From assembly GCA_951406725.2 (NCBI GenBank), contig OX597814.1, forward strand, positions 58,714,001 to 58,778,000: a stretch of DNA of 64,000 nucleotides, given 5' to 3'. Positions 111 through 61,230 of this stretch are shown here, in pieces. The notes beneath the pieces were generated by a model that was given only the letters and a program-made list of their open reading frames with translations, was not told the origin of the DNA and searched no databases. Origin of the DNA: Octopus vulgaris (lineage: Eukaryota). Position 1 is the first letter of the stretch. The number at the start of each line of letters is the position of its first letter. A program made the position numbers and the translations under genes.

Positions 111-586
111 ATTTAGAGATAGAAGTCCCCATGCAATTCATCCAACCCTAATATACATCACACCATATAATATTTCAGTTCCAAATTTCTCTTCTACACG
201 TGTTTTATGAGGTGCGTTTAACGTCCACTAGACACTCAATCTTTTTCAGAAACATGCAACCCCAGTCATCAGGACTCTTCATAACTTTTTTATAATTCAA
301 TAACTATTCCTATATTTTAATATTTTAAGAGTTACGAATGTAACTAACAAACAAACATGCGAGTGGGTAAATAAATTCGCTGAATCTTGTCGTGCAAGCC
401 ATAAATTTAATTGATTAAAAATTAAAAAATTACAAAATAAATTCTAACGTGACTTATGCATAAACATGAAACACGTGTAGAAGAGAAATTTTGAACTGAA
501 ATTGTAAGTATTAAAATAAAATTCTATGATATGGTGTGATGTATATTAGGATTTGATGAATTGCATGGGGATTTCTATCTCTAAAT
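111..586. mobile_element. Inverted-repeat element (arms ~111-209 / ~466-586) with degenerate hammerhead on minus strand (~190-276); probable PLE pLTR derivative
   Basis: The arms are reverse complements (atttagagatagaagtccccatgcaattcatc... / ...gatgaattgcatggggatttctatctctaaat). The minus strand has CTGATGA-TGGGGTTGC...GCACCTCA-TAAAACACGTGTA, and the other arm has GAAACACGTGTA. Confidence 0.6.
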
Positions 587-734
587 GAAATATATTTCCT
601 TATCGAGAATAATTCAATTTATTTGAATCACTGTGACGCCGGAATTTTTATTCCCTAATAAATAAAATCATCTCTCTCTCGCTCTTTCTCTCTCTCTCTA
701 TGTATATATATATATATATATATATATATATATA

Positions 735-2940
735 CATTCATATTGAAGAATGTATTAAAATATATATATATATATATATATATATATATATATATATATA
801 TATATATATATATATATGCAATAATTATAATGATAGAGAACACGGAGATAGGTACATCCTCAAAATTTACTTCCTTTTATTTTACAGGTTGTCATACATC
901 ATATTTTTATGGTTACGACGACTTAGACGTGTTTCTGCTACACAGTATGCGCAGTTGCATACGCAACCGGGCATTATTTTCTGTGCAGCTACGATCAGGG
1001 TTTTTCCCCAAGCTTTACACGAAGCGAACAGAATTCAGTTATTTGCTGAATTAGTGGTTAGCATCCTGCAAGAAGCGAAGGAAGGTTAGTTTGAATCTGA
1101 AATCTGATATGATTGTAAAACTCTTTGGTTGACCTCAGCTTCACACCAGTTGCTGGCTGAATGACTGGATTCTGTCTAATTAGGTCAAAGTCTATTTTAT
1201 GGTATTACCAGACTTGTTTCGTGTATTGTAGTAGATGGGTTCTTAATAAGCTTCTATATATATATATGTATTATGTATATGTAGATATACATATATGTAA
1301 ATATATGTAAATATATGTATGTATATATATATATATATATATATATATATATATATATATATATATATATATATATATATATATATATATATATATATAT
1401 ATATATGTTTTTCGTATCTCTATGTGTTCGACGTCTTTTTGGTGTCCTGTACACATATATGCGTGTATATGTACATGTAGAGGTAGGTACGTACATATAT
1501 GTTTATATATATGCATATATTTTATTAACATATTATACGACTAAACGCACGCACCCTATTAAGTAAGATTGTTCTGTTTATCAAGTTCGCCTTGATATTA
1601 ACTCTCACGCGACTCTGCATCTTTCTTTCTTTCTCTCCCATTCCCTTTTTCGTCTTTTTTCCCTCACTTAACTTGTCTCTTCTCTCTCTCTCCCCCTCAC
1701 TGTTCTTCATGGTCTCCTCGCACCATTCCCCTTCTTCTCTCTCTTCCTCTTGCTCCTCCTCCCCCATTCCCGTCGTCCATCTGCGACCATACTTCCGTCA
1801 TAACTGCTATCCTGTCCTTTCTCGCCCGCCTTCTAAGGCCTCTGGTCGACATCTTCCTCTCTCGTCGTCCACTATAATCCAGCGTTTGCAATACTTTTTT
1901 CGTCTGGCGTTAACAGCCCTTCTTATTTTGTTCTCCTTGTCCTGTCTCTCACTGTTATATATTTATTTTTCCACTGTTTATATATATATTTTTTACTGTT
2001 TATATGTTTGTACTGTCGTTACCGTCTTGCTTTTTTTCACCCCTCTGCGAAAAGATCTCAGAATTTTAATTGATTTGCTTTTCGCAGGAAGGAATTTTTC
2101 ATTCGAAGTATACGTCTCGCTTTTATCCTTCGAAACGTTTAGTAGATGAAACTTTAGCGACTGAAGAAGGGGATTTTTCGTTGTGCTTATTGTCCTGTAT
2201 CTCTCTCTCTTTTTTTGCCTGTCTTGTTCCTTGGTTTGTGTCTATGTTTTTCGTCTCTCTATGTGTTCGACGTCTTTTGGTGTCCTGTACACATATATGC
2301 GTGTATATGTACATGTAGAGGTAGGTACGTACATATATGTTTATATATATGCATATATTTTATTAACATATATATATATATATATATATATATATTCATA
2401 TTGAAGAATGTATATATATATATATATATATGTATGCAATAATTATAATGATAGAGAACACGGAGATAGGTACATCCTCAAAATTTACTTCCTTTTATTT
2501 TACAGGTTGTCATACATCATATTTTTATGGTTACGACGACTTAGACGTGTTTCTGCTACACAGTATGCGCAGTTGCATACGCAACCGGGCATTATTTTCT
2601 GTGCAGCTACGATCGGGGTTTTTCACCAAGCTTTACACGAAGCGAACGGAATTCAGTTATTTGCTGAATTAGTGGTTAGCATCCTGGAAGAAGCGAAGGA
2701 AGGTTAGTTTGAATCTGAAATCTGATATGATTGTAAAACTCTTTGGTTGACCTCAGCTTCACACCAGTTGCTGGCTGAAGGACTGGATTCTGTCTAATTA
2801 GGTCAAAGTCTATTTTATGGTATTACCAGACTTGTTTCGTGTATTGTAGTAGATGGGTTCTTAATAAGCTTCTATATATGTATATGTATATGTATATGTA
2901 GATATACATATATGTAAATATATGTAAATATATGTATATA
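735..2940. repeat. Nested direct repeats A(735-1320) B(1405-1530) C B(2245-2370) A(2395-2940), separated by (TA)n
   Basis: Near-identical copies differing by only a few substitutions, read directly. Confidence 0.9.
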
Positions 2941-3080
2941 TATATATATATATATATATATATATATATATATATATATATATATATATATATATATATA
3001 TATAATAGAAATATTAAAATTACTAAAGTCTCTCTAAAAGAGAACAACGGCAGCGTTCCCGGAAAATAATAGTTATCGCC

Positions 3081-3271
3081 ATACTAATATGGCATTCTTA
3101 TAAAAATAAGAATATAGCTGTCCGCTTATTAGCTCCATATATATCGCCTTAAGTTAGCTATATGATACACAAATGGATACAGTTTGTGTATCAAATAGCT
3201 AACAAAATGGCCTCATGGAGCTAATAAGCGGACAGCTTTATTCTTATTTTATATGAATGCCATATTAGTAT
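3081..3271. repeat. TA-flanked imperfect palindrome (arms ~3081-3173 / ~3183-3271)
   Basis: atactaatatggcattc...gctgtccgcttattagctcca / tggagctaataagcggacagc...gaatgccatattagtat. Confidence 0.85.
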
Positions 3272-4619
3272 ATATATATATATTATATATATATATATAT
3301 AAGTATATATATATATATATATATTGTGAAAATGGAGAGATTCCATCTATCAACACGCATAACCACACGCTTAAATGCACGTCGTTTCTGCCAGTTGTTT
3401 CATTTACACAGCTTCGAGCAACTAGAGATTATAGTAGATGAAATCTGCTCTAGATACCGTGTAGTGAAGCGAATCACAAAAAAAAGACCTAAGTAAACGC
3501 ATATAGAATGTTATAACAGCTAAATTATGTCTTGGGTCTCTATGTATTTTGATGATTTCCTATATATTTTGTACATATATAATAGTTTCGACATTTAATA
3601 CACTCTGCAAATATTGAGCATTCAATGTTCTGTGACTTAAGAACATTTATCCATATGTTAAGCTGTATACACACACACACATAGGCATATTATATGTACA
3701 TGTGTTTGAAATTTACTATGAATGATAAAATCATATAACATTTCTGTAGTGTTCGTATCTTTTAACTATAGAGTTATATTTTCATTGTTATTATTTTCGT
3801 TCGAGTGGATCGAGTGGGATAGAAATCATATAAATACATGTCATGAATTTATATTATTAGCTATCAGATTAGAATTTCTTTCCGTTGTTTTCAGTATCGA
3901 AACATCTTATATGAAGCTGCATATGTAAATAAGCATAACATATCTATGATGAAGTTTAGCTTGAGAATTGATCATACTAAAAGTGTAAATCTATTAAAGC
4001 GAATTAGAATGACACAAATGAATCACTACCAGCGTACCAGAGTGACTTTCCTTTACACTCATTTCATAGTATTGATATGTCATTAGAAAAAGAAGTTAAA
4101 AGCATTCAGCGAACACATTAGAAGTCTGGATAATTTATGTGATGTCATTTTCATATTGAAGGATGTATTAAATACTTGTGAAATATTTTCTTTTACATTT
4201 CATTTTGATGTATTCGTATAATTTATTTTTTCAAATTTTCTCTATTTAAAATGTTTATTATTTTTACTTATGGCAATTACACGTAAGTCGTGTTTCATAG
4301 CATGTGAGTATTCCTTCCAGCAGTACTGAGACATTCACGAACAGTAATTTAGAAAGTAACGTTTAAAGTGAATTTGCCATCTACGCTGCCTGCAGGTTTG
4401 TAACTTTCTTCCATTCCTTGTCACCCAACCAATTTTATAATGTTTTCGACTAAACGCTGCATTATTCAATTTTATTGATAAGAAGTCATGTTCTCTTACA
4501 TTTATATTTATTAAAATTTTTGCTTTATATCCTGCTTGGTACAACGTTATTGTTATTGACATTCTTCGTTCTATAATGCCTTTTTGTTTTTGTCTATATT
4601 TGATTAAATTTTCCTTAAA

Positions 4620-59984: not shown

Positions 59985-60330
59985 TTCTACTATAGGGACA
60001 AGGCCTGACGTTTTCGGGAAGGGGGGGCTCAGATTACATCGACCCCTATCGACTCCGAAATGATGAAAAGCAATGTCGCCCCCTGCGGCATTTGAAGACA
60101 GAACGTGAAGAAGAAATACCTATTTCTATTTCTTTACTACCCACAAGGGGGTAAGCACAGAGGGAACAAACAAACGGATTAAGTGCGTAACTGGTACTTA
60201 CTTAATCGACCCCGAAATGATTAAAGGCAAAGCCAACCTCGGCAGAATTTGAACTTAGAACGTAACGGCAGACGAAATACGGCTACGCATTTCGCCCGGC
60301 ATGCTAACATTTCAGCCAGCTCGCCGCCAT
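59985..60330 (-). mobile_element. Nin-domain-like SINE(s), nested or tandem
   Basis: Reverse complement of the 34330 family, including the tail ccccttgtgggtagtaaagaaata. Confidence 0.85.
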
Positions 60331-60493
60331 GTATATGTTTGTAGAATGTGTAAGTATATAGTCTTACATTGTCATTCACATCCACCTTAACAAGCAATAT
60401 CCCATTACAAACGCACATACGCGCACATATGTACACACACGTGCGCACACACGCACACTCACATACACACATCTATATATACACATATAAATA

Positions 60494-60705
60494 TACGAGG
60501 TGGTGCGGAAATGTTCCTGATATGTAAGGGTATCGCCAAAGGCCGCGCTGGAGCACGAGTTCTACAGTGCTTAGGAAAACTGAAGGGCAGCTGCAATAAG
60601 TGTGTGAATCTGAGGAGGGAATAAATTGGATAAAACCATAAATAAATGATTGTCCTATATTTTCATTTACCCAAAGTCAGGAACTTTATAGCACCACCTC
60701 ATGTA
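60494..60705 (+). mobile_element. Non-autonomous mariner (MITE-like), ~210 bp
   Basis: TIRs tacgaggtggtgcggaaatgttcctga / tcaggaactttatagcaccacctcatgta, and an internal remnant of the transposase end NKCVNLRRE. Confidence 0.75.
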
Positions 60706-60879
60706 TGTTCGTATCAGTGATTAAATATATTTGTGTGTGTGTGGTGTGTGTGCGTGTGTATGTATGTATATATATATACATACATACACATGTATGTATA
60801 TATATATATATATGTACGTATGTATATGAGATCCAGATGTTCTCCGTATAGAATACACTTAGTAGTACTCAATAAATTT

Positions 60880-61230
60880 AAACTTGATCAGATATATAAG
60901 AAATATAGGGATAAGCAATTAAGTCACATCACTATACGAAGTATATTAAGTACATCAAATACAAAAAAAATGTATATATGTAAACATATACTAAGGTCCA
61001 GCTTAACAGAGTACAAATGATATATATGATATAGAGAATTAAAGAGCTGAAGGAAATGCACTACAAATGGAGCAGCTGTTGCTAGGGTCGACGCTCTATC
61101 ATAATGTTTGTAGATTGATTCCATCATAGGATGAGACAAGCCTCCGTCTTCAGATAGGAGATCTTTATATGTATACATATACATTTTCCGTATTGTATGT
61201 ATTTAATATACTTTATATATTGATCTGTCT
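60880..61230. repeat. Diverged inverted-repeat element with hammerhead remnant on minus strand (~61093-61160)
   Basis: aagtatattaagtacat..aaaatgtatat / atatacatttt..atgtatttaatatactt; minus strand CTCCTAT-CTGAAGA...AAACATTATGATAGAG. Confidence 0.45.

Follow-up and report, generated by a model that had tools for sequence, protein, structure and literature searches.

A stretch of 64,000 nucleotides from Octopus vulgaris (GenBank assembly GCA_951406725.2, contig OX597814.1, positions 58,714,001 to 58,778,000, forward strand; called the window below) carries scattered motifs shaped like hammerhead ribozymes. These sites are read here as 3' ends, with hammerheads, from about ten repeat families; six of the families lead into Penelope-like element (PLE) coding sequence, three are non-coding, and all were likely inserted by PLE proteins with reverse transcriptase (RT) and GIY-YIG endonuclease. 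We put the probability of this reading at roughly 0.85. What was noticed is real, if for the most part of a known sort, and PLE hammerheads, octopus Hydra elements and retrozymes have already been published. What is added is an insertion footprint common to coding and non-coding families, a young Hydra-type PLE with an intact open reading frame (ORF), and a putative derivative with a tRNA-like head. The families themselves may already be catalogued in Repbase or Dfam.

Each motif site was used as a query against the genome (2.8 Gb, 227 contigs), and the best 40 candidates per search were scored. The families were lettered A (site 56941), B (57732/58092), C (37591), D (5392), E (47829), F (190), G (61093), H (16274/51464), I (11601), J (43432) and K (922). 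First-look candidates genome-wide, which are loose counts and not copy numbers, came to 2520 for A, 1409 for B, 2275 for C, 2179 for D, 440 for E, 208 for F, 419 for G, 4218 for H, 707 for I, 208 for J and 425 for K.

Hammerhead motifs and their families

An earlier note on this DNA had listed about a dozen hammerhead-like motifs, canonical to decayed, and their positions were borne out, with boundaries agreeing almost to the base. The cores lie at 193-275(-) in F, 920-1002(-) in K, 5392-5434(+) in D (one core base changed), 11600-11641(+) in I, 16274-16319(+) and 51464-51509(-) in H (the latter A9G), 37593-37656(-) in C, 43434-43518(-) in J, 47829-47871(+) in E, 56936-56993(-) in A, and 57732-57809(-) and 58092-58169(+) in B (both A9G). 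A strict descriptor, requiring the core, a stem I of at least 4 and a stem II of at least 3 base pairs, and a paired or palindromic stem III, matched the window twice, at 37652(-) and 56988(-), and had no match in any of 60 block-wise dinucleotide shuffles. With a slightly wider descriptor there were again two matches in the window, none in 98 of 100 shuffles and one in each of the other two. The earlier note had proposed such a comparison, and by it the intact motifs exceed shuffled DNA, no shuffle of the 100 having given two. When one core mismatch was allowed, five matches were found in the window against a shuffle mean of 0.81 (maximum 4); one of the five, at 4086(-), is absent from the sites listed earlier.

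Only two of the 13 listed sites are intact. Because most window copies fail the strict descriptor, the decayed sites are convincing only through their families. Copies elsewhere in the genome restore the full core in 7 of the 11 families, three more families are variants, and 61093 has no restored core. The family majority sequence has a perfect core and three stems in A, B, C, D, E and H, and likewise in F with a 2-bp stem I. Among the variant majorities, that of I has U4C, that of K has one extra core base (CUGAACGA), and that of J has a stem II mismatch and is otherwise complete by eye; J and K fail the descriptor and were judged hammerheads by eye. The family-wide core variants of I and K keep intact stems. 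The strict test was passed by 34 of 44 distinct copy sequences in A, 2/3 in B, 13/19 in C, 5/24 in D, 6/20 in E and 8/25 in H, and by none in F (0/15), I (0/16), J (0/13), K (0/11) and G (0/14). Site 61093 (family G) was rejected as a hammerhead: it has a CUGAAGA but no GAAA.

Could the motifs be chance matches in AT-rich, microsatellite-rich DNA? Rfam reported no hammerhead among the best 150 of 279 window matches, nor in three family copies, and this, together with the many window copies that fail the strict descriptor and the relaxed matches that appear in shuffles, would fit such an origin. Unrelated families, however, hold the core constant while their stem sequences differ, which makes a chance origin improbable, and the high pass rates of the A and C copies point the same way. 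We regard chance as scarcely credible, save for 61093, where it holds. The hammerhead-shaped motifs are mostly real and are spread over about ten repeat families. From the motifs, self-cleavage is predicted, probably in dimeric form, and the insertion ends seem not to be set by it. The many microRNA matches that Rfam reported in the window were dismissed as microsatellite artefacts.

An additional hammerhead family, missed by the earlier note, has a full motif straddling the window start (1-72) and also occurs at L154:1330-1420. The TA-bound fold-back at 12625-12828 belongs to the same family (960 candidates) and retains only the 3' half of the motif; its junction is identical in the 12 copies read.

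Families that lead into Penelope-like coding sequence

In at least one copy each, families B, E, F, H, J and K (seven sites) run upstream into PLE endonuclease or RT sequence, and their sites are therefore 5'-truncated PLE ends. Upstream sequence was shared in 17/19 loci of B, 7/9 of J, 6/6 of K, 10/14 and 8/14 of F (two queries) and 3/10 of E, and in 0/21 of C. ORF links of this kind, like the ends, inversions, tandem junctions and lack of ORFs reported below, were seen directly in the copies.

Family B (57688-58285) is a perfect hairpin in (TA)n, made of two 5'-truncated 3' ends (pseudo-long terminal repeats, pLTRs) of a young Hydra-type PLE placed head to head, each with its hammerhead, and with a tail of about 75 nt at the right end only. 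Its copies are 98-100% identical, and locus L148 holds an intact open frame of 836 aa with RT (GGLYRDD) and with GIY-YIG at its C terminus. Among the motifs, all read by eye, are IIPADKTGN (DKT), CNCRCASEC (CxCX5C), CQLC (CxxC) and CIH (CxH), with RWA at the place matching RWK and no CCHH. The ORF is 2.5 kb long, and about 2.1 kb lie between its stop codon and the 3' end.

Family E (47749-47916, +) is an old PLE 3' end with a decayed hammerhead and has a Hydra-like endonuclease upstream in L280; this ORF link emerged only in the third search, low-complexity 3' untranslated regions (UTRs) having masked it. Family F (105-665) is an inverted pair of 3' ends, with endonuclease upstream in L263 and L264, and family K (813-1244, -) is a PLE 3' end with endonuclease upstream in L232 and, weakly, in L235. 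In family J (43358-44112, -) a Hydra-like GIY-YIG remnant (43724-44087) is followed by a pLTR with a decayed hammerhead, and the family also lies behind a Hydra-like endonuclease in L215, L220 and L221. Family I (11373-11687, +) is an old 3' end with a relative at 10494-10691(-), behind a GIY-YIG remnant at about 10726-10950(-). An RT near family I in L207/L268 was considered as its ORF and rejected, the RT being outside the insertion. Family G (60823-61262, -) is a repeat with a short inverted piece.

The K motif is repeated in the window by a local duplication (821-1254 and 2439-2872, 99% identical), which places the second K copy at 2435-2862. A further GIY-YIG remnant, Hydra-like, lies at 8085-8506(-) and abuts an assembly gap (7985-8084).

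The earlier note had proposed small non-autonomous elements linked to PLEs. The PLE link is upheld, and A, C and D do look non-autonomous, but six families are PLE ends. That every insert might be a PLE truncation, which the note had also envisaged, holds for those six families; for A, C and D no ORF link was found among the best 40 candidates per search.

Non-coding units

Families A, C and D look non-autonomous. No linked PLE protein match was found in their loci, one unlinked neighbour in L003 apart. The copy of family A in the window (56684-57132, -) comprises unit positions 161-503 and an inverted copy of 308-408, has (TA)n on both sides and bears an intact type I hammerhead. The A unit is a non-coding, head-to-tail unit of 503 nt in which no frame stays open for more than 51 aa. 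In 23 distinct loci, what precedes unit position 1 was the unit's own 3' end in 19, an inverted copy in three, (TA)n in one and shared foreign sequence in none. Of the public sequencing runs with such sequence, none is recorded as RNA and 14 are guessed to be; their contigs span 27-28 of the unit's 30 bins, a coverage that does not bear on strand, ends, level or circles. At the unit start (L021:1497-1520) there are, by eye, TATA-like and initiator-like words, a possible internal promoter for RNA polymerase II.

Hammerhead cleavage was considered as the source of the 5' ends of A insertions and rejected, the upstream partial copies beginning at scattered positions: with the cut predicted after unit position 247, 5/20 start on its 5' side and no more than one starts close to it. 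Starts on both sides of the cut agree with the available text of PMC11167929, by which hammerhead cleavage is not needed for insertion.

Family C (37492-37776, -) is represented by unit positions 5-216 and an inverted tail copy (199-288) in (TA)n, with an intact hammerhead. Its monomer is 288 nt long and starts about 40 nt before the hammerhead. No tandem was found in 25 loci, and folding was close to that of shuffles (z -0.7); lacking head-to-tail repeats, C was not filed as a retrozyme. Family D (5138-5564, +) lies outside (TA)n; its non-coding unit of 352 nt is there in partial tandem, along with a short inverted piece. Its copies include head-to-tail partial tandems and a dimer, and target duplications of 9-11 bp were seen by eye in 4/19 loci. 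A and D fold much better than shuffles (z -6.8 and -5.7), and PLE 3' ends do not. On these sequence features A and D appear to fit non-LTR retrozymes.

It could be argued that all sites, A, C and D included, are only truncations or internal deletions of an autonomous PLE, with no independently spreading unit. The scoring of 40 candidates per search leaves room for a parent, and C could resemble E, whose link was so long hidden. Against this, A closes on itself in 19 of 23 loci, D forms tandems, and C shows no shared upstream sequence in its 21 loci; moreover, A and C copies are mostly 93-99% alike, so that a parent ORF should have been readily reached. We consider truncation alone unlikely, and retain the reading of A, C and D as non-coding families beside the coding ones.

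A common insertion signature

The earlier note had held that the elements share only a minimal hammerhead and that their flanks are mostly unrelated. Blastn among the 11 family references found no similarity at E 0.01, which supports the second statement between families, though 16274 and 51464 belong to one family and 57732/58092 to one insertion. The first overlooks a two-end insertion signature common to the families. In B, which is coding, and in A and C, which are not, the 3' ends fall at two fixed places, about 70-100 nt from one another, and enter (TA)n; two ends were also seen in D, E and F. Inverted insertions of A, B and C usually have the long end at one side and the short end at the other. 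Beyond the long end of A and of B, the template goes on with ATATA or TATA. By eye only, C and F share a TTATTCCCTAA end.

Many inserts, by the earlier note, are bounded by (TA)n: A, B, C, E, F and K are, I and G are in part, and D, H and J are not. The fold-back inserts of the same note are present as local fold-backs at A, B, C, D, F, G, I and H-51464, but they do not belong to a small element as such. No constant arm length or junction is seen from copy to copy (the arms of family B measure 268-2190 nt), and the hairpins are therefore insertion scars and not parts of a unit. The note's own view was that all sites are small non-autonomous elements with the hairpin and hammerhead as their own structure. 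A, C and D, non-coding and with fixed boundaries, would suit it, as would the family at 12625-12828, whose recurrent hairpin has a single junction in the 12 copies read. For six families (B, E, F, H, J and K), however, the view is largely refuted by their continuation into PLE ORFs; the hammerhead reading fails at 61093, and the variation of arms and junctions per insertion also speaks against the view. It is thus quite improbable as a general account.

The two arms of a locus had 45% of their variants in common in A (28 loci), 46% in C (11) and 15% in D (12), against 6-7% between loci. Sharing so far above the between-locus level argues that both arms come from one template lineage. Perfect snap-back hairpins at the 5' end of several H copies, and the recurrent GAAAC/GTTTC junction of the family at 12625-12828, favour fold-back of cDNA.

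From these observations we infer nicking, priming, fold-back and mobilisation in trans as follows. The endonuclease, of Hydra type in A, B, C, E, F and K, would nick (TA)n in these families and other AT-rich DNA in D and H. Reverse transcription would begin within the RNA, downstream of the hammerhead, from either of two fixed sites that lie 55-120 nt apart; the ATATA or TATA beyond the long end of A and of B could pair with the nicked target. The cDNA would break off at some variable position or run to the 5' end of the RNA, and an inverted second copy would then be made from the same template, probably by the new cDNA folding back on a short microhomology. In the resulting hairpin, one side would carry the long end and the opposite side the short one. 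In the available text of PMC8557442, PLEs are described as targeting (TA)n and as having a one-sided tail and inverted 5' copies, and in that of PMC11167929 a PLE protein starts reverse transcription in vitro at two internal sites.

Several points weigh against the reading of all these families as insertions by PLE proteins. Pfam matched no RT or GIY-YIG in B or in the PLE remnants of the window, and the PLE clade calls come from motifs read by eye and tblastn, B having been compared by eye with the alignment in the PMC8557442 supplement. The ORF links of E and K come from one or two loci each, and family I had no confirmed ORF link in its other copies. No autonomous element sharing its 3' end with A, C or D was found among the best 40 candidates per search, a search that was not exhaustive. 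Later gene conversion could account for part of the arms' similarity, which in D is weak (15% vs 6%). Finally, insertion tails are 55-120 nt here and 30-40 bp in the available text of PMC8557442.

The tRNA-like head of family H

Family H occurs twice in the window. Copy 1 (15945-16400, +) consists of a Penelope/Poseidon-type ORF end, (AAT)n and a pLTR with a minimal hammerhead, its tRNA-like segment being deleted. Copy 2 (51408-52896, -) has a degraded ORF with RT thumb and GIY-YIG (51738-52566), an inverted ORF piece (52766-52896), the tRNA-like segment and a pLTR. This segment, the head (51594-51652, -), lies in the 3' UTR of H between ORF and pLTR and shows, by eye, A-box and B-box motifs at tRNA spacing. 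Short H copies share their pLTR with Penelope/Poseidon-type ORF copies, among which no intact partner ORF was seen.

Of 30 head-bearing copies, 27 start within about 11 nt of the first base of the head and three extend ORF-ward. The flank of those 27 starts is an inverted copy in 17 and unique or low-complexity sequence in 10. Contigs of four public runs, again guessed to be RNA, exit the H element at the head start. Contig depth, higher over the H head and hammerhead than upstream, was not used, since contig depth cannot rank parts. ORF-bearing H copies are abundant (2124 candidates). ARAGORN at lowered score gave tRNA calls in 2/15 loci and none over the head in 30, and Rfam gave none, either among the best 150 of 279 window matches or in three family copies. 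We lean towards regarding the short H copies as a derivative resembling a short interspersed element (SINE), with the tRNA-like segment as its putative head.

A pile-up of 5' ends might also arise if RT stalled and snapped back at the GCCC-AC-GGGC hairpin in full-length PLE transcripts, with no SINE-like RNA from RNA polymerase III (Pol III) involved. Most of the 15 ORF-bearing loci read carry the head too, several short copies open with a perfect snap-back at the head, tRNA finders barely recognise it, and the query may favour one subfamily, all of which would suit stalling. About ten copies, on the other hand, start at -2..+1 straight in unique flank with no hairpin, the A and B boxes stand at tRNA spacing from that start, and the contigs of the four runs leave the element at the same place. 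Stalling is accordingly a serious competitor, and in our judgement the less probable one. A SINE-like derivative with a PLE partner would, if true, extend SINE-LINE pairing (LINE, long interspersed element) to a third retroelement class; we found no PLE-partnered SINE in the literature.

Comparison with known elements

Family B was compared with the Hydra-clade PLEs with C-terminal endonuclease described in the available parts of PMC8557442. It is like them in DKT, the CxCX5C linker, the lack of CCHH, and CxxC and CxH around conserved E and N, and also in its hammerhead-bearing pLTR, (TA)n targeting, inverted 5' copies and one-sided tail. It differs in having RWA for RWK and a tail of about 75 nt, and exceeds their norm of <3 kb, which is a tendency and not a strict criterion. 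F, J, K and E link to similar endonucleases. The supplement already lists Hydra-1_Obim with a hammerhead, whose sequence differs from that of B. Apart from Hydra-1_Obim, our literature search found no report of an octopus retrozyme or hammerhead, and an octopus repeat annotation (PMC13282606) lists recently active Penelope-like families, hammerheads being unmentioned in its available text.

Dense, diverse and solitary PLE hammerheads, including opposite-strand pairs, appear in the available text of PMC4209133, so that the high motif density of the window is itself expected. The window families resemble published minimal hammerheads in the short stem I, the palindromic or loopless stem III, the extra base after A9 and the many families per genome, as well as in being mostly solitary truncated copies with some opposite-strand pairs 100-700 bp apart. 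They differ in U4C (I), CUGAACGA (K) and a long loop II (B, F and J).

Like metazoan non-LTR retrozymes, as described in the available texts of PMC7229834 and bioRxiv 10.64898/2026.07.22.740005, A and D lack coding capacity, repeat head to tail, pair strongly with themselves and bear a type I hammerhead, and D (352 nt) matches mussel retrozymes in size. In contrast to the long arrays of retrozymes, what is found here is mostly scattered, partially tandem copies that have two fixed ends and inversions of PLE type; A is 503 nt long and TA-targeted, C is a monomer, and the word 'inverted' occurs nowhere in the 2020 text available (PMC7229834). Chlamys non-autonomous PLEs such as MRC1 (PMC8557442, available parts) are also non-coding PLE derivatives with pLTRs and head-to-tail insertions. 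For family H, the likeness is to the schistosome Sm-alpha/Sj-alpha hammerhead SINEs (PMC6765202) and the TRIMp3 elements Helenus, Ajax and Cassandra (PMC10886601), which in the texts available have a small-RNA-derived, Pol III-type head on a mobile non-coding unit, the schistosome SINEs with a hammerhead as well. Unlike these, the H head lies within a PLE 3' UTR, and the short copies share the pLTR and inversion pattern of a visible partner.

Mobilisation of animal retrozymes by PLEs rests, in the available texts of PMC7229834 and bioRxiv 2026.07.22.740005, on co-occurrence and pLTR similarity. The finding of the same two-ended, inverted, (TA)n-bound insertions in non-coding units and in a Hydra-type family is structural evidence on that question. 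Candidates for the enzyme and for its passengers occur together in this genome, and the young intact Hydra-type ORF allows PLE mobilisation of retrozymes to be put directly to the test. We tentatively suggest, at slightly less than even odds, a guild of non-coding PLE parasites that bear the footprint of their mobiliser: TA-targeted, retrozyme-like units (503 and 288 nt) dependent on Hydra-type proteins, and a tRNA-headed, hammerhead-bearing SINE born of a Pol III promoter in a Penelope 3' UTR.

Other features of the window

The window is rich in microsatellites and holds many repeat remnants. An exon with a ligand-gated ion channel domain lies at about 14940-15080(-) (PF02931, E 1e-7), and the window is therefore probably in part intronic. 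A mariner-type transposase remnant (PF01359) and, by eye, LINE-like RT remnants are found among 20531-20839, 53509-54874 and 24317-25700. Extra (TA)n-adjacent fold-backs, absent from the earlier note, lie at 3085-3267, 11813-12089, 47303-47459 and 37038-37443. That at 37038-37443 carries 30-bp terminal inverted repeats, and part of that at 47303-47459 is found again at 49686-49773.

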